Assembly: GCF_006345805.1 (NCBI RefSeq)
Contig: NC_042997.1
Span: 138,756,001-138,820,000 of the forward strand
Origin: Octopus sinensis
Lineage: Eukaryota
DNA: 64,000 nt
Direction: 5' to 3'
Positions 4,379 through 57,547 of the stretch are shown here, piece by piece. Every line of letters begins with the position of its first letter. Position 1 is the stretch's first letter. The translations under genes and the position numbers were made by a program. The notes under the pieces are model-generated. The model searched no databases. It worked only from the letters and a program-made list of their open reading frames with translations, and was not told where the DNA came from.

Positions 4379-4410
<32 letters not shown>

Positions 4411-4663
4411 TTAAAAATTAAGGGTAGAAATTGATATTAGTCAATTAAAACCAGTGGTCTAGCACATTAAAAAGAATCCGAAGATTAAAATATTTATATA
4501 TACCAATTAAGGACTGAACACGAAAAGGTGGACAGTCAACATGCTAGATATAGACGTCAAATCGCCATTCTCCACAAGGATTATGTTCTCAAATAAAAAT
4601 AAAATTTAGCACGACCTAAAGCAATGGATGAGACAAAAGAAATATACTAAATGGAATAATTAC

Positions 4664-4723
4664 CTACGTACTGCAGTTTCAGCTATTAATATCACAAGGA
4701 TATCTGTAACTTCATCAGCGTAG
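4664..4723 (-). ncRNA. Type I hammerhead ribozyme (family B, inverted arm)
   Basis: Reverse complement of 5278-5337 with one G-U pair in stem II. Confidence 0.88.
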
Positions 4724-5277
4724 TTTGTTATGAGCATAATATGCTGTACTAGATGAAAAACGGTACCGGAGTCCCGCATGCAAACAGTACAGATATCCTT
4801 GTGATATTAATAGCTGAAACTGCAGTACGTAGGTAATTATTCCATTTAGTATATTTCTTTTGTCTCATCCATTGCTTTAGGTCGTGCTGAATTTTATTTT
4901 TATTTGAGAACATAATCCTTGTGGAGAATGGCGATTTGACGTCTATATCTAGCATGTTGACTGTCCACCTTTTCGTGTTCAGTCCTTAATTGGTATATAT
5001 AAATATTTTAATCTTCGGATTCTTTTTAATGTGCTAGACCACTGGTTTTAATTGACTAATATCAATTTCTACCCTTAATTTTTAAATATGAAATATAGGT
5101 CTCAAACCGATAAATTGACTGCTGCTAATTATTGGCTGCAGGCTAGTTTTTCGATTATCAGCGCGCCAAAAGTAGAGGCATTCGAAAGATACATCCGAAC
5201 GTAATAGGTTGTACTTTTTGCATGCGGGACTCCGGTACCGTTTTTCATCTAGTACAGCATATTATGCTCATAACAGA

Positions 5278-5337
5278 CTACGCTGATGAAGCTACAGATA
5301 TCCTTGTGATATTAATAGCTGAAACTGCAGTACGTAG
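5278..5337 (+). ncRNA. Type I hammerhead ribozyme (family B)
   Basis: ctacg CTGATGA agcta...tagct GAAAC tgca GTA cgtag; perfect stems I and II, palindromic stem III ACTGCAGT, predicted cut after 5332. Confidence 0.92.
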
Positions 5338-5730
5338 GTAATTATTCCATTTAGTATATTTCTTTTGTCTCATCCATTGCTTTAGGTCGTGCTGAATTTT
5401 ATTTTTATTTGAGAACATAATCCTTGTGGAGAATGGCGATTTGACGTCTATATCTAGCATGTTGACTGTCCACCTTTTCGTGTTCAGTCCTTAATTGGTA
5501 TATATATATATATATATATATATATGTAGATATATGTATGTATATGTATGTGTGTGTGTGTATATATATATATATATGGGTGTGTGTGTATGTATGTGAG
5601 TATGTATATGTGTGTGTGTGTGTATATATGTATACATATGTGTATAGGTATATATTTATATATGTATATATATATAAATATGTATATATAATATATTTAT
5701 ATATGTATATATAATTATATATTTATAATG

Positions 5731-5766
<36 letters not shown>

Positions 5767-5800
5767 TTGATCAAAATAAAAACATGATGCGAAGGATTCA

Positions 5801-5878
5801 GCGGTACATATGTTTCGGGCCTTTATTAGACAGATTTATAACAATGCATAATGTATGTCTGTGGCCTTCTTCAGCCGC
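5801..5878 (-). ncRNA. Type I hammerhead ribozyme (family C, inverted arm)
   Basis: Reverse complement of 8732-8809. Confidence 0.85.
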
Positions 5879-6487
5879 GCACAACAGCTTCCACAAGGAC
5901 ATGTGTTACATAAAAAATTCTTGGTTGGGGATGCAAATCCTCTCATTCGCGTACGACATAATGCGCAGCAGCATAGAATTGAAGCGTCCATCTCTTTCTT
6001 CTCTCAATGTAGAATGAGGAAATTTGGATGTTGAAGTAATGTAAATAAATAAATACATATATAGACGTGAAGATGGAGGGGCGAGAATTCAGGACGAGGG
6101 ATAAAAAATGTATAAAAAGTGTAAGTATAGAAAAATATAAAAAGTAGTAGAGTATAAAGATATAAAGGGATATAAGGAGATGTAAAGGGGGGGTATAAAG
6201 AATATAAAGAAATATAAAGAAATATAAATAAATGTAAAGGCATAAGGTTATAAAGTAAAAATAGAAATAGAAATAAAAGTAAAAAGTAAAAAAATAAAAA
6301 TAGGAATAAACATGATAAAAATGTAAAAAAAATATAAAGATAAGGGATGTATAGAGGTTACGGACCAAACATGGTGGTCAGGAGATTGATAAAATTTAGT
6401 TGTAGAAGTTTTGGGTGTCAATAAATCAACAGTGTCGTCTGGGGACCTAATGTGTTGTAAATCAGAGCTGTTGAGCGTTTAATCTGG

Positions 6488-6763
6488 TCCTCGCTGAAAC
6501 ACAGACATAAGGCTAACAGCACCTCCCTTTCTAAAAGAATTTGGGAATTAAAAGACAAATGCATAGGCTTCAAACTCAGGTGGTCCATCATCGGATCAGC
6601 TGCACCTTATTTAAATAATAGAGCAGGATGCCAACTATGTTGTGTAGAACTCCTGAACATCTTGAAATTCAAAGACAAACACAATCTTATTAACAAAAGG
6701 TCAGAGTTCAAACCATCCTGTATACACAAACTTATAAATACTTTCAAATACTACAAAGCGTAG
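6488..6763 (+). pseudogene. C-terminal fragment of a PLE GIY-YIG endonuclease domain (Neptune-like)
   Basis: Manual translation, absent from the ORF track: SSLKHRHKANSTSLSKRIWELKDKCIGFKLRWSIIGSAAPYLNNRAGCQLCCVELLNILKFKDKHNLINKRSEFKPSCIHKLINTFKYYKA*. Matches the NSTxLSKxIWELK...WSI...CxLC..E...LNKRSE...CxH pattern; uninterrupted frame that begins at the inversion junction. Confidence 0.85.
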
Positions 6764-8731
6764 GTTATTATACCAACTCCCCCATGCAATTTCCTCCCAC
6801 CCGGTGCAACCTGTCGGCTCCAGCACATCCCGCTTTCCTATATGTGCGTGTATATGCGTATATGTGTGCGTATGTATATGTATGTGCACGTATATGTATA
6901 TATATATATATATGTGCGTGTGTGTGTGTGTGTGTGTGGGTGTGTGTATGTGCATATATGTTTCCCTGCATTTTCCTCCTATATATACAAATTTTGTCTC
7001 CCATATATGTCTTCTTTTCCCTACATATTTCTTCTCCTACACCCATATCCTTCCTATATAGTCTCTTTATTTCCCTATATCTATACCCTTTCACATTTCT
7101 AACTCGGATGTTGAACGCACACCGCCAAACTCCACTTCCCACCCTTCCAATTTTCAGTTCCCCCCGCCCGCCCCTACGTGGGCACCTTTAACACACACCT
7201 CTAACTTTCAACCACCTTCATCTCATGTTAAACTTTACCAAATTATATTTTTATTTTATTTTATTTTATTTTTATTTTTGCTTTTATTTTTACTTTTATT
7301 CTACTTCGATTTATTCTCATTTTTATTTTCATCCCTTATCTTAATTCTTATAATTTTTATAATTTTTATATTTCATTTCTAACCTTTACATTGTATTTCT
7401 TATTTTATACTGTATTTCTTACTTTTATTTCTAATTTTTACCCTTACCCTCATTCTTACCCCTAACTTATCGCTTTATATCTCTATATATGTCTATTTTT
7501 TTTGCTTATCCCTTATTTACTTACCTATGGATCCACTTTATGATTATACGAGCGTCCGTGTACGTATGTATACGTATACATATATGTACATATGTACGAG
7601 TAAACATCTACGTCTGGATGTACATACCCCGTATTTCTTTTTTTACATGTTTTCTTATATTCATATGTTTACACCTATTTGTATACATCTTTTAATATCT
7701 TATAGCTATACCCATATGCGCGTATGTCTCTGTGTGTGCATGTAAGTGTATATGTGCACGTACATATGGACACACAGCCGTGTGTGCGTGCACGTGTAGA
7801 CGTGAGTGCGTGATTCTTTACATACGTTCTTATATACATCCTTTAATATCTTATATCTAAACCTGGAAGCGTGGGCATATGCGTATGTGTATGTAAGGAT
7901 GGGCGCACGTATGTACATATGGGTGTGTACACGTATAATGTCCGTGTATACATGCGGATATTATGTTGTATGTATGTATATGTACGCGCGTGCGTGTGGG
8001 TGTGTGTGTGTTTATGTACATGTTTACACGTGAGTGCGTGTGTATGCTTATAGGCTTGGAGGCGTATATGGGTGTATGTATCCATGATGGTATGTATGTA
8101 CTAGATGACCAATTAATTCAAAGAACCAGATTAAACGCTCAACAGCTCTGATTTACAACACATTAGGTCCCCAGACGACACTGTTGATTTATTGACACCC
8201 AAAACTTCTACAACTAAATTTTATCAATCTCCTGACCACCATGTTTGGTCCGTAACCTCTATACATCCCTTATCTTTATATTTTTTTTACATTTTTATCA
8301 TGTTTATTCCTATTTTTATTTTTTTACTTTTTACTTTTATTTCTATTTCTATTTTTACTTTATAACCTTATGCCTTTACATTTATTTATATTTCTTTATA
8401 TTTCTTTATATTCTTTATACCCCCTTTACATCTCCTTATATCCCTTTATATCTTTATACTCTACATTTTTATATTTTTCTATACTTACACTTTTTATACA
8501 TTTTTTATCCCTCGTCCTGAATTCTCGCCCCTCCATCTTCACGTCTATATATGTATTTATTTATTTACATTACTTCAACATCCAAATTTCCTCATTCTAC
8601 ATTGAGAGAAGAAAGAGATGGACGCTTCAATTCTATGCTGCTGCCGCATTATGTCGTACGCGAATGAGAGGATTTGCATCCCCAACCAAGAATTTTTTAT
8701 GTAACACATGTCCTTGTGGAAGCTGTTGTGC

Positions 8732-8809
8732 GCGGCTGAAGAAGGCCACAGACATACATTATGCATTGTTATAAATCTGTCTAATAAAGGCCCGAAACAT
8801 ATGTACCGC
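8732..8809 (+). ncRNA. Type I hammerhead ribozyme (family C)
   Basis: gcgg CTGAAGA aggcc...ggccc GAAAC atat GTA ccgc; palindromic stem III ACATATGT. Confidence 0.85.
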
Positions 8810-8934
8810 TGAATCCTTCGCATCATGTTTTTATTTTGATCAATTTACTCCACCACCTACACCACCAAACGGTATACACAGGTGCTTATAATTATCAAGT
8901 ACTCACCCCGAATTTCTATATATATATATATATA

Positions 8935-10468: not shown

Positions 10469-11016
10469 GATGCCCTGATGCAGTACCAGGCAGTGGCTCT
10501 CAAGGCTTCTGATCTTAACTGATTGGAAGTGTCATCATGTACATTGTTTTGTCTTGGTATAAAAGATGGGCTACAGCAAATATTCTGCTCAATACCACAG
10601 ATTTGCTTGTCAGTTGTTTGACCTTAACCAGTTGAGCATGTCCCTTAGTGGCTGACGATATGTGCATCTCTGATCACGAGCAAAAGTAGTGGGGGAGCAT
10701 CTTAGCCATGTGTTGAGAGGGATTCTTTGGGGTTTGAATAATTCACCTCTGGAAACATGGGTGGTTTTTTCAACATCCTTAAACAACCCTTATTCAGGGA
10801 CCGTTTGAGCGGGATGGGCTACTCAACCTGAAGAAAATTCTAACTGGGCCCCACCTGCAAGGTCATGTGCTGTTTATCTTGATATGAGATCACCATGTCG
10901 TGCACATATGGTTGTGATGCATGTGCCTGGTGTACCCTTATCAGACGGGTAGTCATGATGGGAATATTGGGCTTCGTATATTTTACCCCAGTGTCACTTT
11001 GATGGCATGCACACTC

Positions 11017-11700: not shown

Positions 11701-13487
11701 CTTCTTATATAATGAAATTATATTAGACTTTTTTGCATCATCAGTCCCGCTTTCTGCTCTCTTTGCTTCTCATTTTCTGATCTTGGTAAAGATTATTTTT
11801 GGAAACGTATTTAAAGTACAACATTTTATCTGGCTTAAATATTTTACTTCTAAGAAAAATCGTGACCCACCCCACTACATACTAAACACTCAGCACTCTC
11901 ATGATATTTGCTCTTCCCCTTATGAGCTCACAACGACAACAAAAGTGGTGGGGTACAGCCCAGGTTATGAACCAATGCTATTTAATTTAAAATGTCTGTC
12001 AATATCTGTCGCCAATCGACATTGATAAACAGAATAAACATATGCTCCTCTAGCTCTTAACTTAATTAACAATTCCAATAAGAATTTTTCTTCTCTTTTT
12101 AGCATTTGTTTTCTGTATCATTTGTCTTCTCTGACAACCATATTGCCATTCTTATCGAACATTTTTTAAATACCTCCTACTGAACTAAAGTTTCTTCCTT
12201 TAGCAGTTGTACTATTTTTGACAAATTTTGTGACTGTAAAATTGTTTTATCTGTTGAGACAATTATTTTTACCGAGCCATGCCAGAGGTAATCTCTTATG
12301 GCAAGAATGTATCATCAAAATAGCATTTCTATGGCCTTTTATCCTTGTCTGTCTCCAAATAGCATTATACTGATAACATCTCAAATTTGCGTTTCTCTGA
12401 TTAATATCCCAGTGCTTATATTTTCATACAGCCTCACTAATTGAAGCAATTAATCTTCCAGTATGACACATGAAGAACACTGAACTTCCAGATACTTCTA
12501 ACCACTGGTAAAAATCCAAGATTATTGAAAACAGAGAGACAGTATTTCGTATTGACAACATACTCCCAAGTACATGACACATAACATGATTAAGATATTG
12601 TCGAACATTCGACAAAGTTGAGTCGTTAAAAGTGGGTTAGATTTTAATTGGCTATGTCTATCAAAATATGTTGCAGGAGTGCCACACGTCTGGCGTCCGA
12701 TGTCTGCATTCGATGCTTAGGACAGGAACACAATTGTAAGCATTTGAAAAGTCTGACATAACTATCCCTTATGCTATTTACAAAACTATTTGCACAGCCC
12801 ATCCTCCCTGTCTATTCTTACATCGTTTCCATTTATAGAATATTAAATTACTTGTATATTTGTATTCATATTTAAATGAAACATTTGATAACCGACAGTC
12901 TGTGAATGCATTTTCACTAGGTTTCATTTAGCCATTCTGAATACAGTTTATTATGTCATAAATGTGCTAATCTACTGAATAAAGGTTGTCTTTATTGAAG
13001 AACAAACAACACACTTTTCTGTGATAACTCTTAATAACTTTCACTGAAGTGCATAAAATATATATAACGATGGAACCTCTTTTTGTGAAAATTTAGCATT
13101 AGTCAAACATTCTATATTTTAATATATGCTTTAAAAAAATTTTCGTCTGGTCTATTGTTTTTAATAGAAATCTTTAACATGACAAATTACAACAGTCATA
13201 CATATTCTCAGTTCGTAATGTTTCCTCATCTATACTGGCATTTCCCTTGTGAATATTTTCCAAATATTTGATCACTCCTGTAATAAATTACCGCCATCCG
13301 ACTTAAATACTATCACAGCCTTTTAGACTATAAACGTTTCATAGGAACAGCGTACAGTAGAGCACCACTACAGTGTCTACTAGTTCTCGTATGGTACCTG
13401 GCTCCTAATAAAGAGTAGTAAAAGTCGAAATTGATACTAAAGGCACTAAGCTTCTTTATCGACTCTTTATTATCTAATATCTTTTAT

Positions 13488-13704
13488 CTTTTGCTTGTGT
13501 TAGTCATTAGACTGCAGCCATGCTGGTGTACCACTTTGAAGAATTTTTAGTCGAATTAACCGACTCTAGTACTTTTTTTCCATAATAATTCTATCGGGTT
13601 CTTTTGCCGAACCGCTAATTTACGGAAACGTAAGCACGCTAATACAGGATTTCAAGTGGTGGTGGAGGCAAACACAAACACAATAACACACACAAACACA
13701 CACA

Positions 13705-13751
<47 letters not shown>

Positions 13752-13935
13752 CACACACACATTTATATATGTATATATGTATATATGATGTCTTCTTTCA
13801 GTTTCCGTTCCTCAAATCCATTTACAAGGCTTTGGTCAGCCCGTGGCTTATAGCTGGAGACACTTGTCCAAGTTGCCACGCAGTGGGACTGAATCTGGAA
13901 CCATGTGGTTGGGAAGCAAGCTTCTTACCACACAG
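13488..13935 (-). mobile_element. tRNA-derived SINE family B with internal microsatellite
   Basis: Head (tgtgtggtaagaagcttgc...gattcagtcccactgcgtggc), internal (CA)n and conserved tail (cagcatggctgcagtc). Confidence 0.85.
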
Positions 13936-14328
13936 CAAAAGAAACTTTAATCAACATACGCAGACTAAGTGTACCCCACTTACTATAATCTAATCTTTAT
14001 TTGATAAAGTAATTTAGTGTATCTAATTTGGGTAAGTGCTTTTTACTATAGTCTCGGGCCAACCAAAACCTTGTGTGTGGATTTGGTAGACGGAGACTGA
14101 AAGAAGCCTGTCATATATATATATATATATATATAAGTAATACTAAGCAATAAGGGTTTAGCAACGAGTTGCCTTACCACATACCGAATTTAGAAATAGC
14201 AGTCAAAGGGTTATAGCTATTTCTTCTACTAAAAAGGGAGATCTCAGTAAAAACAGCATTTGGAAGGCAGACACAAACAGGTAAGAGAGAATGAATTGAC
14301 TGCAATCTATCATACATTTTTTTAGTTA

Positions 14329-14435
14329 TCCACGGACGTACGTTTCGAAATCAAGTTTTTAGGAAAGCATAAGAATTAAATATTAAATATTAAATAATTC
14401 TATCTTACCGAAACTTCTTTTCTCTTCAGCGTAGA
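14329..14435 (-). ncRNA. Type I hammerhead ribozyme (family D, inverted arm)
   Basis: Reverse complement of 14684-14790. Confidence 0.85.
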
Positions 14436-14683
14436 ATACTATAATCATAAATGATTATATATTGAATTTTGAGATACCAGAAGGCACCAACTCAACTCAG
14501 TATCAGAGCGAGCTAGAATCCGCAACTGGTATCACCGAATTCAATTTGTGAATGAAACGATTGTGTCAACAGCCCCTTCCCACCCGCGTGTAGCCAAAAC
14601 AAGATGCTGTGGTCATCTACTGAGATAAAATATGGTATCTGGTATCTCAAAATTCAATATATAATCATTTATGATTATAGTAT

Positions 14684-14790
14684 TCTACGCTGAAGAGAAA
14701 AGAAGTTTCGGTAAGATAGAATTATTTAATATTTAATATTTAATTCTTATGCTTTCCTAAAAACTTGATTTCGAAACGTACGTCCGTGGA
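14684..14790 (+). ncRNA. Type I hammerhead ribozyme (family D)
   Basis: tctacg CTGAAGA gaaa...(long loop)...tttc GAAAC gtac GTC cgtgga; predicted cut after 14784. Confidence 0.87.
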
Positions 14791-15089
14791 TAACTAAAAA
14801 AATGTATGATAGATTGCAGTCAATTCATTCTCTCTTACCTGTTTGTGTCTGCCTTCCAAATGCTGTTTTTACTGAGATCTCCCTTTTTAGTAGAAGAAAT
14901 AGCTATAACCCTTTGACTGCTATTTCTAAATTCGGTATGTGGTAAGGCAACTCGTTGCTAAACCCTTATTGCTTAGTATTACTTAAATTTTCCTCGAATG
15001 AGGCTTTTACATGCCGAAGACTACTTGGTGTAATTGATAATTTTTCCAAATTAATTAATTTCACCCTTCATTATTACGGATATATATAT

Positions 15090-15482
15090 ATATATATAAT
15101 ATAAAATCCGTTCCGTCTGTGTGTGTGTGTATGTCTTCTAGGATCTCGGGCAATCTCCATCCGATTGCGCTCAAATTTGATATGTAGGTACCGACGGTAT
15201 CAGGGCGAGTATAAGTCTTGAAAAAATTACAAAAATCGATTCCAGGTGAGAATGCGATCGATAAAACCGTGGGAACGTGCATTTGTACGCGCAAGTACAT
15301 CAGCTGTTGCGATCGATACTACGCGTACGCGAGAAAAATGCCCGTGCAGTTTGCGCAAAAAAAGCCGGCTGGCTTGAAATAATGCCACAACATGGGACGG
15401 TCGGACAAGTTGTTTTGAGAAAATTTGGTTTAAATGTTTGACAACTCAGCACCGTCCATTGGACGGGGTACGTTTTGCTCGT
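15090..15482 (+). mobile_element. Non-autonomous Helitron-like element
   Basis: 5' tatataatataaaatccg...(tg)n start; 3' GC hairpin ccgtcc-att-ggacgg (15452-15466) lies 11 nt before CTCG|T, a variant of CTRR|T. Confidence 0.6.
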
Positions 15483-15486
15483 AAAC

Positions 15487-15562
<76 letters not shown>

Positions 15563-16222
15563 TATATACATCTTTGAGTGTCTGTGTTTGTCCTCCCAGC
15601 ATAGCTTGACGACCGATGCTGGTGTGTAACGTAGCGGTTCTGCAAGAGCGACCGATAGAATAAGTACTAGGCTTACAAAGAATAAGTCCTGGAGTCGATT
15701 TGCTCGACTAAAGGCGTTGCTCCAGCATGGCTGCAGTCAAATGACTGAAACAGATAAAAGAATATAATGAAAAGAAGAGAAATTATTTATTCTATTGGAT
15801 TTAACTTACCAGAGATAGCGCATATCCTAACAAATATTCAATTCCATGTTGAGATTATGTGAATTTAGGATCTTATAATTTAGAATCTGAAGAATTTCCA
15901 CTTCAGAGGTGATTTGCAGCTGAACCAGCTTTCGATAAATTTTATTTCGATGAAGTGTTTTCGATCAACGGTTCTCATATCTCTAAGTATATGTTTTGAA
16001 GATGAGACCTTTAAATTAATTCACGTAAAATATATTACTGCATGGTTGGTTACACAAGTCTCTTCTTTTACTTTTGTGTCATCCCTTCAATGGGGTCTGC
16101 TTTTAGGAAGAAAGAAAGAGAGAGGGACAGAGAAAGACAGAGTGAGAGAGAGAACGATAGTGTGTCTTTGTATGAGTGAGGGTATGACAGAGTGTGTGCG
16201 TGGGTATGTCTGAAATAATGAG

Positions 16223-16268
<46 letters not shown>

Positions 16269-16494
16269 CGTGTGCGCGTGCAGTTGTGCACGCGTGTGTG
16301 TTTTGTGTTGGCAGTAATATAAGGTGTTACGGACAAATGATATTGATATGACAACAATGTACGCCAACTATCGTCGGAACTAGGCGAGGATTCGGGTTGT
16401 AGTGTAGTAATGTAGCCTATTGCATACCGACACAAAGAGGCACTCGGTTGGACAAGCACAGTCACACAAACACACACACACACACACACACATA

Positions 16495-16675
16495 CATATA
16501 TGTATTCATATATACGACAGGCTTCTTTCAGTTTCTGTCTACCAAATCCACTCACAAGGCTTTGGTCGGCCCGAGGCTATAGAAGAAGACACTTGCCCAA
16601 GGTGCCACGCGGTGGGACTGAACCCGGAACCATGTGGTTCGTAAGCAAGCTACTTACCACACAGCCACTCCTATG
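16495..16675 (-). mobile_element. SINE family B head and body
   Basis: Reverse complement of ggagtggctgtgtggtaagtagcttgc...gggttcagtccc...ccttgggcaagtg. Confidence 0.9.
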
Positions 16676-17154
16676 TCTATCCTTTACTATCCTGTCTGTT
16701 TTCCTTGTTTTGCCGAACGTAGTGTATTCTAGGATTACAATATGTTGTCATCCACTTTTCATGGTAGACGGAAACTGGAAGAAGCCCGTCGTATTTACAC
16801 TTTTCATGATGAAAGGGTATGGTTTGAAGATGGTTTAGCAGCTATTTCTAGCAGGCTCAACGGCTATGTAGAGACCTCTTTGTTGGCTCATCGCTGGATA
16901 TTTTATTTACATCAGCAACATATCCAGAAAAAAACTATTCCAAATTTGTGAAACCCGTAAAGCTCAACCTAATACCAGTTTCCGTATAATTAAACGGATA
17001 ACAAAACCACATTCACTTCAACAGGATACCAGACTACTGCAGCTTTTTTACTCACAGACCATTCCGGATGAACTGGATATCAGGCTATGAGTAACGAATA
17101 TACTATGAAGTGAATCTCCCATTCTCCTTTGTGATTAGCTGACACTGTCTTTTT

Positions 17155-17257
<103 letters not shown>

Positions 17258-17317
17258 GCATGTACAGAAGTTTCAAAAGTTTATTGCATGTTCCGAAAAC
17301 CAACATTTCCTACAAAA

Positions 17318-17535
17318 TATTGATTTCAAATTTTGGCACAAGACCAGCAAGTTCGAGATAGGTGGGAAAGTCGATTACACCGACCTCAGTGCTCAAATGG
17401 TACTTATCTTATCAATCAAAAAGGATGAAAGGCTCAGTCGACCTCGGTGCTATTGGAACTCAGATCGTAGAGACAGACGAAATACGCTAAGCATTTTTGC
17501 CCGGCATTCTAACGATCCTGCCAGCTCGCTGCCTT
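17318..17535 (-). mobile_element. SINE family A (near full length)
   Basis: Tail gatttcaaattttggcacaag through head ccagctcgctgcc. Confidence 0.85.
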
Positions 17536-19454
17536 TCCATCAAAATATTGCCACGTCTTAACTGACGGGCGCGCTCACCACCGTTTGAAACATTGATCCT
17601 GTAGGTATTTAAACTGCAGAGTCGTTACAAAGGGACATTTTAAAGTACTAATCTCTGCATTATTTAGATAAGCTTCCTATAAAGAACATTATTTATACTT
17701 GAATATAAACGTATACATTACCTCAGCCTTTAATCTCTTTTTTTCCTTCATTTTACTCAGTAAAAAATACAGTAATAAAATATATTTTCTGCTTTAAGTG
17801 ACAAGCCTTTCATTGTCTGAATGTATCTATTTCCGGTTCTGAAATGGCGTTCTGCAGACTGGGGTGACATGTCCTTTTATATTCGTTCCTTTGCAGTCAA
17901 ATAAAATCGTGATTTAAAGATCTCCATGTACCTCATAATGGGATGAACGTTTTCAATGTTTCATCCCATATTTATCTACTTTCTTATTTTTGGAAGAATA
18001 TTTTCACATTACTGGATAGTAATGTTGATCAAGTCAATTTAGTTAGTTGCGTCCAGAAGTTATACTTTTTCTAGGACAAAATATTTAAAATCATACACAC
18101 ATAAAATAAAATGAAATACAACTCAATTAGAAAGGTTGAAGTAAGAGATGTCTACACGAACGATATGGTTTAACTAAATATCAATGAGGGTGGTGGGTGG
18201 CAGATTCCGCAATGGACAAAATATCTTCTGATATCTAGTTACGTCCTTTTACATTCTAAGTTCAAATTTTGCCAGAATCGACTTTGGTTTTCATCCTATT
18301 ATAGGTCTATGTGTACAGAAATAGTTAAGTATCGTGACAAAGTCTAACGATTTAAATCCCATTGAAAATTATATATTGTTGTCAATAAATAGATAAATAA
18401 ATAAAATTACATTACATTAAATTAAATCAAGCGTCGTGGTTTCGGAAAAATTTCCTTTACATTTTTCTCTACTTCAAAAGAGAAATTGTCTTAATATTCC
18501 ATGTCGAAAAATGGTTAATCAAAAATGGCAAAACCGAGCTTTTAACAATGTCATATAACATAAAGATCAAATTGGCAAAAAAAAAAAAAAAAAATTAGAG
18601 AAAATAAATAAATAAAAATAGATCAATATGTTATTTCTAGTTTTATCCCTTATCAACAGAATTCCGAGGGAAAAGCAAAAGAATAAAAAAAAAAGGGAAA
18701 AGTAAATAAAATAAGAAACAAAAAAGAAAAATATAACAAAAGCACAAAGCTTAATTGATAAACACTTTCTAAGAGTTGGACATCTCTAATTCAAACGCAT
18801 CGGCCAAGTTTTCTATTATTTGCCAATGTTTTCTGGGGAAAATAGATTTCTGGACATTTCTAAATAGAGTTTACAAGTACATTTTCGTGCCGAACAAATA
18901 CGAATATTCATATAAAATAGCTACGCATATTCTGTACATTGAAATACATTGAAAACGTTTTATCACATTAGTATGGACCAGCAAATCTTTGTAAATTCTG
19001 ATTCTATTTTCACTGTAGTGGTTTCCCTAGAAATTGATTCATATGTTTCATTCATTCTTTAACTTTCACGGTATGTCAGCAATTTTCTACTTTCGAAGTT
19101 GTTATCTATCAAACTTTGCATTATAGTTTCCACCATTGCTTAAAAATCATTCTATAGTAGTTCCTCGTGCAGTTAGACACAGCAGACAAATCTCACTCAA
19201 ATTGCACCCCATTGTCTTAAAAACGTAAGAATACATTGAATAATGTATTAGATACACAAAAAGACTTTCTAAGTTATCTACCACTCTTTGCATTACAGAT
19301 TTCACCATTTCGTGGAAAGCTCTCTGTAGGTACTTGCACTGCTAGAAACAGCAGACAAACCTCATTCAATTTGCTCCCAACTGTCTTAAAACGTAAGAAA
19401 AGATTAAATAATATGATGTAGATATACTAGAAGATTTCAGAGTGGTTAACTTTC

Positions 19455-19848: not shown

Positions 19849-20400
19849 ATGCCCTGATGCAGTACCAGGCACTGGCCTTCATGGTTTCTCATCTTAACTG
19901 ATTGGAAGTGTTATCGTGTATATTGTTTTGTCATGGTATAAAAGATGGGCTACAGCAAATTTTCTGCTCAGTACCACAGATTTTCTTGTCGGTTGTTTGA
20001 CCGTAACCAGTTGAGCATGTCCCTTAGTGGCTGACGATATGTGCATCTCTGATCGCGAGCAGAAGTAGTGGGGGAGCATCATAGCCATGTGTTGAGAGGA
20101 ATTCTTTGGGGTTTGAATAATTCACCTCTGGAAACATGGGTGTTTCGTTCGACAGCCTTAAACAACCCTTATTCAGGGACCTTTTGAGCGGGATGGGCTA
20201 CTCAACCTGAAGAAAATTCTAACTGGGCCCCACCTGCATGGTCATGCGCTGTTAATCTTGATATGAAATCACCGTGTCGCGCACATATGGTTGTGATGCA
20301 TGTGCCTGGTGTACCCTTATCAGACGGGTAGTTATGATGGGTATACTGGGCTTCGTATATTTTAACCCGGTGTCGATTTGATGGCACGCACTGCTCTCTC
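19849..20400 (-). mobile_element. ~550-bp (TAA)n-embedded repeat, copy 2
   Basis: Colinear with 10469-11017. Confidence 0.85.
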
Positions 20401-20756
20401 AATAACAATGATAATCCTTTTTGCTATAGGCACAAGGCCTAAAATTTGGGGGAGGGGAATAAACGATTACGTTCACCCCAGAGTTTCACTGGTACTTAAT
20501 TTATCGACCCCGAAAGGAAGCAAGGCAAAGTCGACCTCGCCCGGCGTGCTAACGATTCTGCTAGCTCACCGACTTAATAATAATGGTGATGATGATGATA
20601 ATAATAATAATAACAATAATAATAATAACAACAACAACAACAATAATAATAATAATAATAATAAATGACAGAAGAAATTTAATGATTTTATCAAGAGGTT
20701 AGCATGAAATAAATGAAACCATAAAGGCTACAATTTATACTAATTTATGATTATAT

Positions 20757-21825: not shown

Positions 21826-21929
21826 ACACCTGATGAGATGCATCTACACCAGCGGATGCAACATAACCAAATATACAGTATCCCACGTGCAAGAGACCGA
21901 TGCAAGATGGGTCGAAACAATCGTTGTGT
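21826..21929 (+). ncRNA. Type I hammerhead ribozyme (family E)
   Basis: acac CTGATGA gat...gtc GAAAC aatc GTT gtgt. Confidence 0.72.
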
Positions 21930-24218: not shown

Positions 24219-24286
24219 GTTGCACTGAAGATGAGAAATAATTAAGTAAATATAACTTTACTTTAATCTCGAAACGCGTATGTAGC
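24219..24286 (+). ncRNA. Type I hammerhead ribozyme (family F)
   Basis: gttgca CTGAAGA t gaga...tctc GAAAC gc GTA tgtagc. The downstream ctatttctaaattcggt (24391) is shared with family D (14920). The host segment 23995-24460 lies between microsatellites. Confidence 0.75.
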
Positions 24287-24471
24287 TAATCTGAGTCGTG
24301 TGGATTCGTTATTTTTTCTTTTTGCCTACGTAAATAAGAGTGTTACTGTCTGGAAGATCTTTATGGTGGTAGAAAAGGCATTTTAACTCCTATTTCTAAA
24401 TTCGGTGCGTAGCGTAGCAATTAGATGACCCCTGATTATAATTATGTTCATAATCATAGAATATTTGCATG

Positions 24472-34828: not shown

Positions 34829-35526
34829 TATATATGTATATAATATATATAATATATATATACATATTATATATAGATATATATATACATATATCTATAA
34901 CATAATATATATATATACATATAATATATATATATATATATAAATATATATATATAATATATATATACATATATATATAGTATATATATATACATATATC
35001 TATAACATATATATTACATATATATATATATACATATATATATTACATATAATATATATATATATATAAATATATACATATGTATACGTATATAAATAGG
35101 TGTATATATATATATATATATATATGTAATACTAAGCAATAAGGGTTTAGCAACGAGTTGCCTTACCACATACCGAATTTAGAAATAGCAGTCAAAGGGT
35201 TATAGCTATTTCTTCTACTAAAAAGGGAGATCTCAGTAAAAACAGCATTTGGAAGGCAGACACAAACAGGTAAGAGAGAATGAATTGACTGCAATCTATC
35301 ATACATTTTTTTAGTTATCCACGGATATGTATATAGATATATGTATATAGATAGGTATATATATATATATATATATTATATAGAGAGAGAGAGAGATAGA
35401 TAGATAGGTATATTAATATATATATATATATATATAGATAGATAGATAGATAGGTATATATATATATATATATATTATATGTATATAGATAGGTATATAT
35501 TATATATATATTATATATTATATATG

Positions 35527-36558: not shown

Positions 36559-36640
36559 GGTCCCGGGTTGAGTCGGGGTTAACCACAGTAAATAAGGTAC
36601 TCAATACATAGCAGAGTAAATTAATCTATTTTATAGAAGG

Positions 36641-36691
36641 AGCTTCTACAGGACTAGAACTGTTTCATTCAAAAGAAATCATCAGGAAGCT
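36641..36691 (-). ncRNA. Type I hammerhead ribozyme (family A)
   Basis: agcttc CTGATGA tttc-tttt-gaat GAAAC agttctagtcct GTA gaagct. Confidence 0.8.
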
Positions 36692-36919
36692 AGTAGACAA
36701 GAGTTGTTTTGGCATTTATACATTTAGGCAGGTTTAAATGGGTGGTGGTTGGGGGACTTTTTTGGGGGTAGGCATGGTGCAAAAACGTCATTATTAGGGG
36801 AGTGCTCAAAGGAATCGGTGGTAAAGTAGATAAAAGAATAAATAAAAGAATAAAAAAATAAAAAATATAAATAGAAAAATAGAGTTTTAGGTAAGTAGGG
36901 AGACTCTCACTTGTACATC

Positions 36920-36965
<46 letters not shown>

Positions 36966-37624
36966 TACACCCGCATATTCACATATATCTATACATATAC
37001 ACATACACACATACACATACATACATATACATACACATACACATACACATATATACATATATATACACATACATACACATACACATGTACGTACACACAG
37101 ATACACATATACATACATATACATACATATATGTATACCCACTCGCACATATATATACAAATGCATATACATGCACACACATACACACACATTTTTATTA
37201 TCTTATTTTAATTTTATTATTACTACTTTTGTTTATATCTTTATTTTTATCTTGACCGGTCAGCCGGTCTCAAGGGATGATATAAAGATTCCGTTTATCT
37301 ATCTACTTACTGGTACGAACGCAAGCACTCACTCACGCCCACACACTCACACGTACACACACGCACGTGTTATATTCATACACGCATACATCTACATACA
37401 TTCACGTATATTCACATACACGCATACACATACATACCTCAACACACCCACAGAAGACTAGTCCATACATATACACTAATTAATATATATACACATATAC
37501 ATATACACATACATACACATACATACATATACATACACATATACATATATATATATACATATATATTCATATACATATACATACACATATACATTCATAC
37601 ATATATACACATACACACATACAT

Positions 37625-37668
<44 letters not shown>

Positions 37669-37912
37669 CGGGAAGCTTTATGAAAAAAAAATATATATAT
37701 ATATACATACATATGCATATATATGCGTACACACACACACACACACGCGCGCATCTATATATACACATAAGTACATACATGCATAAAATATGCATAAATG
37801 TATACATATGTCTATACATATGCATACACATCCACACACACACGCGCCTCCTTATGTTCATAAAAACATACATGCATACGGGCACATACATATATACATA
37901 CATGCATACTCA

Positions 37913-37977
<65 letters not shown>

Positions 37978-38117
37978 TATATACGTGCAGTTACCCATTA
38001 TACAAACGGATACATACATATAAACATACCCATATATACCTATTTACACATATGTATATATACATACATACATACACACATAACTCTACATACCTACATA
38101 TACATAAACACACAAGC

Positions 38118-38184
<67 letters not shown>

Positions 38185-38314
38185 CACACATATATATATA
38201 TACATATACACATACATACATATCCATATACACATACACACATACACATATACACACACATACACACATATATATATATTATATATAATATATATATACA
38301 TATACATATATATA

Positions 38315-38353
<39 letters not shown>

Positions 38354-38405
38354 TTACACTCACATTTACACATATATATACATACACATACACATACACA
38401 CACAC

Positions 38406-38436
<31 letters not shown>

Positions 38437-38806
38437 CACATACATATACATATATATATGTGTATATATACACATATATATATATATTTACATATATATA
38501 CACACAAGCACATACATGCATAAATGTATACATATGTTTATACAAATGCATACACATACACACACTCACGCGCCTCCTTATATACATAAATACTTACATG
38601 CATACAAACGCATACTCATGTAATAGATAATGAATAATAAATAATAGATATATATACACATGCAGTTACCCTTTGTACAGACGGAAACATACATATAAGC
38701 ATACACGTATATACCTATCTACACATATGTATATATACATACATACATGCACATACACATAACTCTACATACTTACATATACATAAACACACGAGCGTAC
38801 ACATAT

Positions 38807-38851
<45 letters not shown>

Positions 38852-39407
38852 TATATATATATACATATACACACATACATACACATACATACACACACAT
38901 ATACACATACATACATACATATACATACATACACATACACACACATACACATACATACATATATATATACATTTATATATACATATATATATCTATATAT
39001 ACATTACACACATATATATACATATACACATACACATACACACATACATATACACATATATATATATATGTGTACATATACATACATATATACACATATA
39101 TATACACACAAGCACATACATGCATAAATGTATACATATGTTTATATAAATGCATACACATACACACACTCACGCGCCTCCTTATATACATAAATACATA
39201 CTCCCTACTTACCTAAAACTCTATTTTTCTATTTATATTCTATTTTATTCTTTTATTTATTCTTTTATCTACTTTACCACCGATTCCTTTGACCACTCCC
39301 CTAATAATGACGTTTTTGCGCCATGCCTACCCCCAAAAAAGTCCCCCAACCACCACTCATTTAAACCTGCCTAAATGTATAAATGCCAAAACAACTCTTG
39401 TCTACTA

Positions 39408-39456
39408 GCTTCCTGATGATTTCTTTTGTATGAAACAGTTCTAGTCCTGTAGAAGC
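39408..39456 (+). ncRNA. Type I hammerhead ribozyme (family A, stem II mutated)
   Basis: gcttc CTGATGA tttcttttgtat GAAAC agttctagtcct GTA gaagc. Confidence 0.7.
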
Positions 39457-39506
39457 ACCTTCTATAAAATAAATATATATATATCTATATATATATATAT
39501 TATATA

Positions 39507-45959: not shown

Positions 45960-46556
45960 CAGGACTTATTCATTGCAACCAGTCCTATGTGCACCTCTCC
46001 ACTTGATCCGATTTAGAGCATCATTTTCCCAATCACATATTTTCATATCTAGTTTCTTCAGGTTTCCCTTCACACAGTCTTTATACCTTTTCCTCGGATT
46101 ATGTTGTGGTCGCTTATCAGAGTTGAGGTCACCATAAAAAAGGCGCTTTGGCAAACGCTCGTCTTTCATTCTAATAACATGTCCAGTCCATCTCATTTGG
46201 GCCAAGATAATATTTTGTTTAATTGAGCTGCAACATGCAATGCGCAAAACCTCTGTATCTGGTATGAAATATTCCCACTTGACTCCTGAAATACATCTGA
46301 GGCACTTTTGATGAAATCTCTCCAGCATTTTTATGTGACGCTTGTAAGTGGTCCATGTCTCACTTGAATAAAGAGGTGTAGACAATACACACACTTTATA
46401 GACATTGATTTTTGTCTGCAGGGGAATACCTCTATCCGCCCATACTCGTTTTTCGAGCTTTCCAAATGCAACACTTCCCTTCCCTATTCGATTGTATACC
46501 TCTGCATCAAGACTACCATCTCTTGACAGTGTGCTTTCTAGGTAAACAAAGGTGTT
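45960..46556 (-). pseudogene. RTE-clade LINE ORF, C-terminal fragment
   Basis: FVYLGSTLSRDGSLDAEVYNRIGKGSVAFGKLE...VLSTPLYSSETWTTYKRHIKMLERFHQKCLRCISGVKW...QMRWTGHVIRMKDERLPKRLFYGDL...PRKRYKDCVK. Confidence 0.9.
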
Positions 46557-47185
46557 CCATTCACAAAAAGTTGTACAAGTCTCAGAAAGAAGACTTGCAA
46601 AAAGAACTCAGGAGTCTTAAAGACACTTGGTGGAGAAATTTGTCAAAGGAAGTACAGGCAGCCTATGACAGGAAAGATATTAATAGTTTCTATATTTTAT
46701 TGCAGCAAGCTTTTGAACCGCAATCTTCATCACTATATGTTCCCTTGAGGTCGATAGATGGAAATGAGGTTATTAAAGATCCTCCTAGAATAATGAATAG
46801 ATGGAGAGAACACTTTGCAGATCTTTCCTACAATCCGTCTCTAGTGAACTTGGATATCATAAACAACATTCTGCAAAGAGAGATAGTGCAACACATGGAT
46901 GATACACCTTCAATTGAAGAAGAAAATCTGACATTATGTAAACTGAGATCAGGTAAAGCTCCTGGATTGGATGGTATTACAGTTGAAATTCTGAAAGCAG
47001 GAGGGGATGATATTTCATCTGAAATTCATAACCTGGTAACTCGAGTTTGGAATGAATTTTCTGTGCAATAAAAATGGATAAATGGCATTCTGATCTCTGT
47101 ATACAAGGGTAAGCGCCCGAAAGCAGTGCGTGATAATTCTAGAGGGATAACTCTTTTGGCACATACCGGGAAGATACATTATGTC
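46557..47185 (+). pseudogene. RTE-clade LINE ORF, linker and start of reverse transcriptase
   Basis: LRSLKDTWWRNLSKEVQ...RWREHFADL...GKAPGLDGITVEILKAGG...*KWINGILISVYKGK...NSRGITLLAHTGKI. Confidence 0.9.
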
Positions 47186-48267: not shown

Positions 48268-48311
48268 TGTATGTATGTATGTATGTATGTATATATATAT
48301 ATATATATATA

Positions 48312-48981
48312 TAATCAATATAGGGTGGCAAGGAAAATTTTGTAGAATTTTATTGCCACCAGCGGCCCAGTGGGAAAAAATTAAATAGTCATAGACCATT
48401 TTTAAGTTCAACAATAACAATTAAGGAACGGCCATAATAGGCCATTCACCCACTAGAAATAACAGCCAAAGCTGTTATTGTAATTGTTATTGTTGAACTT
48501 AAAAATGGTCTATGACTATTTAATTTTTTCCCACTGGGCCGCTGGTGGCAATAAAATTCTACAAAATTTTCCTTGCCACCCTATATTGATTAATTATGAA
48601 TTTTTTGGTTAATTCCGTAATGGAATCGACGGCTGATATTTATTTGCTGCCGATAAATTTGGCGCGAGTGCGACGATTTGAAAATTTTAGGTCAGATATT
48701 GACTTGGCAAGATTGGGTATGCCTCGTGTAAATATCTGTTCCGACTTGAGCTATTTCTTGCTGAAGAATCCGAGGGCTTATGGAAGATTGGCTTGATTTA
48801 ATTTAATCATGTTAGTTTACCATTAAACAGCGGATGAAACGGTATACCGTACAAGAAATTACAGGGTAAATGTTTTTTTAATTTTCTCCTGTTTACGGAA
48901 TTGATCTTTATTTGCGGTAGAAGCTTTGGCTGTTATTTCTAGTGGGTGAATGGCCTATTATGGCCGTTCCTTAATTGTTAT

Positions 48982-48982
<1 letters not shown>
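48312..48982 (+). mobile_element. Non-coding hammerhead retroelement family G (491-nt unit plus an inverted arm spanning the unit junction)
   Basis: taattgttatt at 48481 and 48972; 48312-48473 is the reverse complement of the unit end joined to the unit start; (TA)n flanks. Confidence 0.88.
48753..48859 (+). ncRNA. Type I hammerhead ribozyme (family G)
   Basis: atttcttg CTGAAGA atccg...cggat GAAAC ggtatacc GTA caagaaat; perfect 8-bp stem I, 5-bp stem II, palindromic stem III; predicted cut after 48851. Confidence 0.93.
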
Positions 48983-54024: not shown

Positions 54025-55564
54025 CAGTGTTGTAAACCGGGGTCCATACGGTCCCTGAGGGTACATATAAGATTTTGTGGGGTCCATGCAACAAAATAGT
54101 AAGTTAGAGATCCACAAAAAATTTGCTTTAGATGTACGTATTGGTATGTATTGCAAGAAATAGCTAGGTTTGTTTCTCTAATATTTTACATAGTTCAATC
54201 TACACAAGTTAATGTGTGAAAAACAAAGTAGTAATTTGGAAAAAAAAGTTTCTATAAAACTAGTTTTCATACATCGAATGGCTATAGAGGTCAATATAAG
54301 ATTTTTGTGGTCCACGCAACAAAATAGAAAATTGGGAATCCACAATGATATTTTAAGGGTCCCTGAAGAAAATTTGTTTTAGATATATGTATTTGTATGT
54401 ATTGCGAGAAGCAGCCTGGTTTCTTTCTCTAACATTTTATAAAGTAGGAACTTGGGAAGAATCTTTTATAAAACTAGTTTTTAAACATCGAATAGCCTTT
54501 TTATAAAACTAGTTTTTAAACATCGAATGACCTTTTTATAAATCTAGTTTTTAAACATCGAATGGCCTTTTTATAAATCTAGTTTTTAAACATCGAATGG
54601 CCTTTTTATAAATCTAGTTTTTAAACATCGAATGGCCTTTTTATAAATCTAGTTTTTAAACATCGAATGGCCTTTTTATAAAATTAGTTTTTAAACATCG
54701 AATAGCCTTTTTATAAATCTAGTTTTTAAACATCGAATGCCCTTTTTATAAAACTAGTTTTTAAACATCGAATAGCCTTTTTATAAATCTAGTTTTTAAA
54801 CATCGAATGGCCTTTTTATAAAACTAGTTTTTAAACATCGAATGACCTTTTTATAAAACTAGTTTTTAAACATCGAATAGCTTTTTATAAATCTAGTTTT
54901 TAAACATCGAATGGCCTTTTTATAAAACTAGTTTTTAAACATCGAATGACCTTTTTATAAAACTAGTTTTTAAACATCGAATAGCCTTTTTATAAATCTA
55001 GTTTTTAAACATCGAATGGCCTTTTTATAAAACTAGTTTTTAAACATCGAATGGCCTTTTTATAAAACTAGTTTTTAAACATCGAATGGCCTTTTTATAA
55101 AACTAGTTTTTAAACATCGAATGACCTTTTTATAAAACTAGTTTTTAAACATCGAATAGCCTTTTTATAAATCTAGTTTTTAAACATCGAATGGCCTTTT
55201 TATAAAACTAGTTTTTAAACATCGAATGGCCTTTTTATAAAACTAGTTTTTAAACATCGAATGGCCTTTTTATAAAACTAGTTTTTAAACATCGAATAGC
55301 CTTTTTATAAATCTAGTTTTTAAACATCGAATGGCCTTTTTATAAAACTAGTTTTTAAACATCGAATGACCTTTTTATAAAACTAGTTTTTAAACATCGA
55401 ATAGCTTTTTATAAATCTAGTTTTTAAACATCGAATGGCCTTTTTATAAAACTAGTTTTTAAACATCGAATGACCTTTTTATAAAACTAGTTTTTAAACA
55501 TCGAATGCCCTTTGATCATTAATCAAAGGGGTTTATAAATAAAAAAAATGGTTGAGAACTCCTG
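54025..55564. mobile_element. hAT (Charlie-like) non-autonomous element hosting a minisatellite
   Basis: Termini CAGTGTTGTAAACC and GGTTGAGAACTCCTG; 8-bp flanks atttggat / ctttagat; internal ~230-bp direct duplication. Confidence 0.65.
54464..55510. repeat. 35-bp minisatellite, ~30 copies
   Basis: Unit tttttataaaactagtttttaaacatcgaatggcc with few variant sites and no spacers. Confidence 0.95.
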
Positions 55565-56950: not shown

Positions 56951-57042
56951 GCAGCAGCGATAACAATAATAATAATAATAATTACAACTGCAAGCGTTAT
57001 TTTCATTATTTATAATATTGCAGTTGTAATTATTATTGTTAT

Positions 57043-57477
57043 TGAGTGCTTGCCATCAAAGTGACATTAGAGTAAAATATATGAAGCCCATTATACCCAT
57101 CATGACTACCCGTCTGATATGGGTACACTAGGCACTTGCATCAGAATCATATGTGCGCGACGTGGTGATCTCATATCAAGATAAACATCGCATGACCTTG
57201 CAGGTGGGGCCCAGTTAGAATTTTCTTCTGGTCGAGTACCCATCCTGCTCAAAAGGTCCCTGAATAAGGGTTGTTTAAGGCTGTCGAACGAAACACCCAT
57301 GTTTCCAAAAGGTGAATTATTCAAACCCCTAAGAATTCCTTTCAACATATGGCTACTCCTGCTCGTGATCAGAGATGCACATATCGTCAGCCACTAAGGG
57401 ACATGCTCAACTGGTTAAGGTCAAACAACTGACAAACAGATCTGCGGTATTGAGCAGAATATTTGCTGTAGCCCATC

Positions 57478-57480
<3 letters not shown>
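57043..57480 (+). mobile_element. ~550-bp (TAA)n-embedded repeat, copy 3 (truncated, opposite orientation)
   Basis: Reverse complement of 10560-11017; runs into (TTA)n. Confidence 0.85.

Positions 57481-57547
<67 letters not shown>

Follow-up and report, generated by a model that had tools for sequence, protein, structure and literature searches.

The ~1,100-nt insertion at positions 4407–5506 of the window (the whole 64,000-nt stretch of Octopus sinensis DNA that was analysed) is likely a non-autonomous Penelope-type element (PLE), a 505-nt hammerhead repeat whose RNA a PLE reverse transcriptase-endonuclease, acting in trans, probably copied twice in a single event. The insertion is set in a TA microsatellite, between two (TA)n runs (4380–4406 and 5507–5525), and the surrounding window is AT-rich, microsatellite-dense animal DNA. 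It consists of two arms pointing outward. The plus-strand arm of 711–719 nt, or ~1.41 units of 505 nt, runs from 4788 to 5498–5506, and the inverted, minus-strand arm of 385 nt runs from 4791 to 4407, the two meeting head-to-head with an overlap of 4 nt (4788–4791, the plus arm starting at 4788 and the minus arm ending at 4791). Both the ~1.4 head-to-tail copies of a 505-nt unit and the upstream inverted copy had been claimed in the preliminary description, and both claims hold, with the plus arm running to ~5506. Within the plus arm, 4788–5001 and 5293–5506 form a direct repeat of period 505 with 0 differences in 214 nt, and the copies first diverge at 5002/5507. The first direct copy (214 nt), the equivalent of a pseudo-LTR, begins with a hammerhead 3′ half, and the second stops in the right TA flank, its end lying between 5498 and 5506. 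The single-copy part of the arm (5002–5292) comprises the tail region up to 5089 and an internal segment. The inverted arm corresponds to unit positions 5210–5292 followed by 4788–5089 and differs from the plus arm at four sites (window 4607, 4709, 4725 and 4785). A blastn search of the window found no further copy of the focal unit beyond short chance matches.

Each arm terminates in (TA)n, and the two unit positions concerned, which we call site 1 (5001) and site 2 (5089), are separated by 88 nt. Site 1 is an internal TATATATA (4994–5001) at which the plus arm stops one unit later (5499–5506), with 8 nt common to unit and flank. The left end, at site 2 (window 4407), lies 88 nt deeper in the unit and has just 4 nt in common with the TA flank. 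Consequently, the proposal that the insertion ends at the internal TATATATA is right for the right end and wrong for the left one. The 88-nt stretch from site 1 to site 2 forms a tail at this insertion end only (4407–4494, minus strand). The minus arm carries 5210, the hammerhead, site 1 and site 2 contiguously, a stretch that the plus arm does not have in one piece, and the predicted cut site is traversed twice by the plus arm and once by the minus arm. If transcribed through, this copy would form a 302-bp hairpin and is therefore likely not the source copy of monomers.

This layout agrees with what has been described for PLE insertions, which combine a partial tandem with a truncated, inverted copy beside it, carry a tail on one side and target TA (PMC8557442; PMC3846280, as far as their accessible text goes). 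Direct pseudo-LTRs, a head-to-head inverted 5′-truncated copy, a tail at one end and a hammerhead in the repeat, the marks of EN+ PLE insertions, were all found, and, judged from the sequence, each structural feature of a non-autonomous PLE insertion that could be checked is present. That an inverted arm with a one-sided tail is standard PLE anatomy had been overlooked. The element lacks the ORF with reverse transcriptase and GIY-YIG endonuclease that marks an autonomous PLE. In the tandemised unit, the longest stop-to-stop frame is 70 codons and the longest from an ATG is 60 aa, and tblastn of 150 Penelope-type proteins against the element gave 0 matches, in line with the earlier statement that there is no credible ORF. 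The features of non-LTR retrozymes are present as well: a short non-coding unit with a type I hammerhead and no LTR, PBS or PPT, a multi-copy family, and a self-paired monomer whose ribozyme is predicted to be free to fold. A tandem of at least two units, each with its complete hammerhead, was not found at this locus, where the plus strand has one complete and one half hammerhead. We therefore class the element as likely a non-autonomous PLE, non-LTR-retrozyme-like and of a kind already known; with one complete ribozyme per strand at the locus and a circle that is hypothetical, it is not classed as a proven retrozyme. The link that makes retrozymes non-autonomous PLEs has itself been drawn in a preprint (bioRxiv 2026.07.22.740005, in its accessible part). 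Scans for the exact motif turned up 0 loci in either metagenome or viral contigs, and a bacterial promoter scan of the window, irrelevant here, stayed below chance.

The complete type I hammerhead motif of the plus strand spans 5278–5337, with helix I at 5278–5282/5333–5337, CUGAUGA at 5283–5289, helix II at 5290–5320, GAAA at 5321–5324 and a predicted cut at 5332/5333. Among 2000 resampled 713-nt sequences, 1 contained any candidate and 0 contained one of this quality. The assignment is based on our own pattern scan and on folding; Rfam gave no support, with 0 matches in the window at the gathering score and no hammerhead among the 7 matches up to E 10. The "one intact hammerhead" of the preliminary description is thus borne out on the plus strand, but a second complete type I motif on the minus arm (4664–4723; core 4718, predicted cut 4669/4668) had been missed, so that the locus has one complete motif per strand plus the 3′ half on the plus strand (4788–4832, predicted cut 4827/4828).

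Helix III of the motif has 1–2 bp and a palindromic loop, which is the dimer-acting type according to PMC4209133 and PMC7229834 (in the text accessible). For the monomer, the active fold (−10.2 kcal/mol) lies 4.9 kcal/mol above the minimum of −15.1 kcal/mol, whereas for a double hammerhead, in which the upstream half can pair with the downstream core, the active fold is the predicted minimum (−24.2 kcal/mol). The hammerhead is therefore predicted to work as a dimer. Helix II is closed by an A-U pair instead of the usual G10.1-C11.1 (PMC4209133, same part), which may lower the activity of the ribozyme; of the predicted Xenopus retrozyme dimers, 8 of 9 were uncleaved in vitro in the accessible part of bioRxiv 2026.07.22.740005. 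The cut-to-cut monomer (4828–5332, 505 nt), a non-coding, self-paired candidate circle, folds as a linear molecule with a z of −4.0 (0 of 100 shuffles equally stable). As a sense circle, it reaches a z of −3.7 (0 of 40 shuffles), with 61% of its nucleotides paired and hammerhead helices I and II formed in the prediction, compared with a z of −1.6 (2 of 40 shuffles) for the antisense circle. Single variants 5031 G>A, 5038 A>G and 5292 C>T preserve predicted pairs, and 5037 G>A disrupts one.

A relative of the unit lies in the same window. At 48310–48982, a 491-nt non-coding unit with its own hammerhead shows the same two-arm layout and is colinear with the focal unit, with 281 of 451 columns identical (62%) and 0 of 300 shuffles scoring as high; its circular fold has a z of −5.5. 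The plus arm of the relative stops at the homologue of site 1 and its minus arm at the homologue of site 2, although there is no internal TA run at site 1 and at most 3 nt are common to the unit and the TA flanks at both ends. These results indicate that insertions can end at these positions without a TA run. At the arm junction, the relative has a short palindrome and a ~43-nt gap. The 8-mer CCTTAATT occurs at 4984–4991, 5073–5080 and 48969–48976, that is, 2–9 nt before both focal end sites and the relative's site 1, and 7 of its 9 occurrences in the window fall within the focal element and the relative. It is possible that CCTTAATT is a start-site signal.

The same 64 kb contain five further two-arm elements whose sequences are unrelated or distant and whose outward ends lie in TA. 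The immediate neighbour (5763–8918) is a two-arm PLE insertion with a 71-nt one-sided tail. Its 730-nt minus arm (6491 to 5763) is 99% identical to 8122–8847, and its plus arm opens with 90 C-terminal codons of a GIY-YIG endonuclease of PLE type (6491–6763), followed by a long 3′ region. In an exhaustive protein search, the endonuclease piece had 63 matches at E ≤ 1e-10; it returned 0 Pfam families, and a word-index search of longer proteins gave 0 matches. Six long matches were scanned, of which one gave sub-threshold reverse transcriptase and GIY-YIG, four no family and one an unrelated weak match; the reverse transcriptase of these relatives has a YRDD motif. Our guess is that the neighbour belongs to the Hydra or Neptune clade. 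Its terminal sequence differs from that of the focal unit. This coding end shows that a coding partner type exists in this genome, and, taken together, the neighbour and the 491-nt relative show that coding and non-coding elements alike leave the two-arm tailed layout.

Other repeats were noted in the window. The two-arm element at 14136–~15080 has 346-nt inverted arms that are 100% identical and hammerheads at 14690 (plus) and 14429 (minus) with a helix II region of 76 nt; a 200-nt 3′ piece of it, also 100% identical, stands alone between TA runs at 35126–35325. An older palindromic element (21445–~22110) has arms of 83% identity and CUGAUGA cores at 21830 (plus) and 21587 (minus). At 36624–39474, inverted 279-nt arms (95%) with minimal hammerhead-like cores enclose 2.3 kb that is mostly microsatellite, and a third piece lies at 919–1112. 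The hammerhead-like cores at 8736/5874 (in the neighbour) and at 39413/36685/967 were read by eye and failed both scans, and a relaxed scan placed a type I hammerhead-like motif on the plus strand at 24225–24290, outside any repeat pair seen. The window also holds broken LINE reverse-transcriptase reading frames on the minus strand (45966–47071), which we take to be RTE-like from their translation, a tandem array of 35/70-nt period at 54464–55513 (~95% identical), three copies of a ~540-nt dispersed repeat (10470–11012, 19849–20415 and 57029–57483; 86–93% identical) and, throughout, many SINE-like repeats of 100–300 nt.

The unit recurs in public sequencing data. Twenty of the 24 runs listed contain the unit or part of it (9 studies, 6 organism labels), and 14 of the 24 contain at least half of the sampled words; no run recorded as RNA among the 24 holds it. 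Contigs of four runs (X5, X4, X2 and X16), more than 1,300 of them in each of two large runs, were mapped onto 4900–5404. Such assembled contigs are uninformative on RNA ends, strand and circles, and X5 is possibly the window's own sample, in which case it is not independent. All 30 bins were covered in X5, X4 and X2 and 12 of 30 in X16, a run that we guess to be RNA; it covers 4900–5103 only and is uninformative either way on expression. Since the whole unit is present in contigs of other samples, it represents a family and not a one-off deletion. The preliminary description, of a non-coding ribozyme unit that went in as more than a single monomer, is supported. A 357-nt X2 contig (4983–5337) bridges the internal join, and a 137-nt X5 contig identical to 5105–5241 has a depth of 8157, compared with 25–53 for low-depth contigs. 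On a rough reading of depth, and bearing in mind that X5 may be the same sample as the window, the internal join is common to many copies.

The contigs also mark the ends of other copies. Among the 23 loose ends listed (of 163), those at 5077 have the best support (28 contigs from X5 and 18 from X4) and run into TA-rich sequence, as do those of X16 at 5080–5085; loose ends into TA-rich sequence at unit positions 5077–5085 are thus seen in three of the four mapped runs, and one loose end, at 5006, exits into TA. Furthermore, in one X2 contig, 4983 is preceded by part of the unit in inverted orientation, and sister-subfamily contigs carry a TA-rich version of site 2. At two positions where the arms differ, the minus-arm allele is frequent: A at 5276 accounts for all the depth of X5, X4 and X2, and T at 5292 is found in X2 and most of X5, X4 having mostly the plus-arm allele. 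The summed depth in X5, which we do not read as copy number, is 314,000–902,000 over 4917–5086 and 12,000–18,000 over 5155–5222. This excess is expected from 5′ truncation together with a diverged sister subfamily and may as well come from a coding relative with the same end. Overlapping X2 contigs close a 505-nt cycle. A joint in X2 that goes back 505 nt was considered as a circle junction and rejected, as it is ordinary pseudo-LTR sequence running over the edge of the reference.

How could one event have produced two outward arms of unequal length? In the favoured explanation, the PLE endonuclease would nick both (TA)n strands, and each free 3′ end would prime reverse transcription inside the element RNA, at 5001 or at 5089. 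The two ends of the insertion point to this, as does the purified Poseidon protein, which cuts and extends both strands and has two internal start sites that define the tail (PMC11167929). It would mainly be the RNA that determines the start positions, short AT matches helping at most; the Poseidon protein starts internally without target homology in vitro (PMC11167929). The sequence shows the two copies, of ~715 and 385 nt, united head-to-head over their 4 common bases. Since the plus arm crosses the cut site twice and the minus arm once, the template would have comprised successive units. It may have been a ligated 505-nt circle, to which we give slightly less than an even chance, or else a multimeric transcript left uncut or a template jump, to which together we give slightly more. 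With dimer-type cleavage, as predicted, monomers and circles would arise from tandem transcripts.

Since the minus arm is continuous from 5210 to site 2 and this stretch is missing in one piece from the plus arm, the minus arm is not a plain fold-back of the integrated plus arm. It is plausible that the arms come from two RNA molecules. The divergence between the arms and that between the direct copies (4/385 vs. 0/214) do not differ significantly (Fisher p 0.30), so that this two-template reading is based on the layout, and the alleles could also stem from mutation after insertion or from an error of assembly. The involvement of a PLE reverse transcriptase in trans, suggested before, is supported as most likely by the PLE-type anatomy of the insertion. 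One point against the favoured explanation is the 88-nt tail, which exceeds the usual 30–40 nt.

Was the template a circle? The locus may be that of a true non-LTR retrozyme, whose self-cleaved 505-nt monomer would be ligated into an abundant circle and reverse transcribed for more than one round; this is compatible with two-copy PLE insertion, of which it specifies the template step, and we regard it as a serious possibility that falls somewhat short of probable. The two passages of the plus arm over the cut site and the identity of its direct copies fit such a circle, and a 1.41-mer ending at site 1 would regenerate itself only via a circle, not as linear RNA. The better fold of the sense monomer compared with shuffles and antisense, with helices I and II free, and that of the 491-nt relative point the same way, as does the closed 505-nt cycle of X2 contigs, and circles of this sort have been demonstrated for coral, mussel and axolotl repeats (PMC7229834, accessible text). 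Tandem DNA, however, gives the same closed contig cycle, and an uncut multimer of ~2.5 units or template re-entry by a jump would give the same 1.4-mer; Poseidon works mainly on uncut RNA and can do without cleavage in vitro (PMC11167929). With one complete hammerhead per strand and none in tandem, the locus also falls outside the "active retrozyme" of bioRxiv 2026.07.22.740005, and 505 nt is longer than the 170–400 nt of validated circles but within the 51–972 bp of predicted families given in the accessible part of that preprint. The circular-template idea was put forward for PLEs in 2014 (PMC4209133) and for retrozymes in 2020 (PMC7229834), going by the accessible parts of both papers. A second reading takes the locus for no more than the ends of a long coding PLE, or for a single internally deleted copy of one (pseudo-LTR, short remnant, pseudo-LTR and inverted pseudo-LTR). 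The coding neighbour leaves the same anatomy, and the depth of 4917–5086, far above that of 5155–5222, means that most 3′-module sequence comes without the internal part. Yet 5′ truncation and a sister subfamily yield the same depth excess, contigs of other samples run across the internal join (X2 4983–5337; X5 5105–5241, depth 8157), and none of the 23 loose ends listed (of 163) reads, in the internal part, as a switch to unrelated long sequence, those before 4902–4928, before 5100 and behind 5150 resembling diverged versions of the unit. The 62%-identical relative, moreover, retains the length and order of the unit. We consider this reading improbable; the preliminary description had named just such a pseudo-LTR of a long coding PLE as the outcome that would speak against it, and the data examined, with the internal join bridged, do not show one.

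What fixed the ends is a separate matter. Pairing of nicked (TA)n with the internal TA run, proposed earlier as target TA priming, accounts for the 8 nt in common at the right end, for the contig exiting into TA at 5006 and for the sister-subfamily contigs with a TA-rich site 2. It is weakened by the 4 nt at the left end, by the ≤3 nt at both ends of a relative without a TA run at site 1, by the loose ends, most of which lie at site 2 and not at the TA run (among the 23 of 163 listed), and by Poseidon, which needs no homology in vitro (PMC11167929), and we now find it doubtful. A local DNA-level event or artefact, with slippage, repair or misassembly between microsatellites having doubled and inverted a monomer, might be suspected from the perfect direct repeat and the microsatellite flanks. 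It is very improbable given that the arms differ at four sites, that five other two-arm elements in the same 64 kb have outward ends in TA and that the ends coincide with positions used by other copies in the contigs. Insertion of a non-autonomous PLE by double copying is the likely reading, and the one that we retain.

Neither the class nor the anatomy nor the circle hypothesis is new to the literature, and the focal element is one more non-autonomous Penelope-type hammerhead element. The main text of the papers covered contains no description of this family and no direct test of two-template priming, and the family may already be catalogued. In the accessible main text of a paper annotating the repeats of one octopus genome (PMC13282606), ribozymes are mentioned 0 times. 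What the family offers is a 505-nt, many-copy unit from which template length, start sites and arm origins can be read in the genome, which is rare with 3-kb coding elements; it may serve as a test object for how PLEs generate more-than-unit, inverted and tailed insertions. A bolder proposal, which we think unlikely to hold as a whole, is that a lineage of ~500-nt non-coding hammerhead RNAs spreads as circles, that a dimeric PLE enzyme primes both (TA)n strands on two RNAs, one per start site, and that the half hammerhead of the 1.4-mer restores monomer release. If so, the lineage would be old, diverged to 62% identity with its length, fold and two fixed reverse-transcription start sites kept, and it would be a minimal natural substrate uniting retrozyme circles with the partial tandems, inverted pseudo-LTRs and tails of PLEs.

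Among known systems, EN+ PLE insertions such as Pen2a_Av share with the focal element ~200-nt direct pseudo-LTRs from a partial tandem, an adjacent head-to-head inverted 5′-truncated copy, a tail at one end and a hammerhead in the repeat (PMC8557442; PMC3846280), and the EN+ PLEs Hydra, Neptune and Naiad share its (TA)n target (PMC8557442). In contrast to these, as described in the accessible text, the focal element has no ORF, a unit of only 505 nt, a tail of 88 nt as opposed to 30–40 nt and no TSD readable in the TA run. Animal non-LTR retrozymes (PMC7229834; bioRxiv 10.64898/2026.07.22.740005) resemble it in several ways: the unit is short, non-coding and AT-rich with a type I hammerhead, copies are arranged head-to-tail, the predicted circle is self-paired and leaves the ribozyme unblocked, and mobilisation by PLEs has been proposed. 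They differ in that the focal locus has only 1.4 units, one complete ribozyme per strand and a hypothetical circle, and its ribozyme is of the dimer type with a long helix II, as in PLE hammerheads. A fresh-looking PLE-type two-arm insertion like this one is not discussed in the accessible parts of these two retrozyme papers. The Chlamys elements such as MRC1 are likewise non-coding PLE derivatives with pseudo-LTRs and head-to-tail copies, and their 3′ ends are in common with autonomous families; they are algal and mostly without hammerheads (PMC8557442, accessible part). Poseidon of Anolis (PMC11167929) is coding, with start sites 111–118 nt into the ORF, whereas the focal ends lie 166–174 and ~262 nt past the cut, one of them being itself a TA run. 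On the other hand, Poseidon has, as the focal element appears to have, two internal reverse-transcription start sites that lie 3′ of the hammerhead and delimit the tail, together with AT-rich targets of which both strands are cut and extended.
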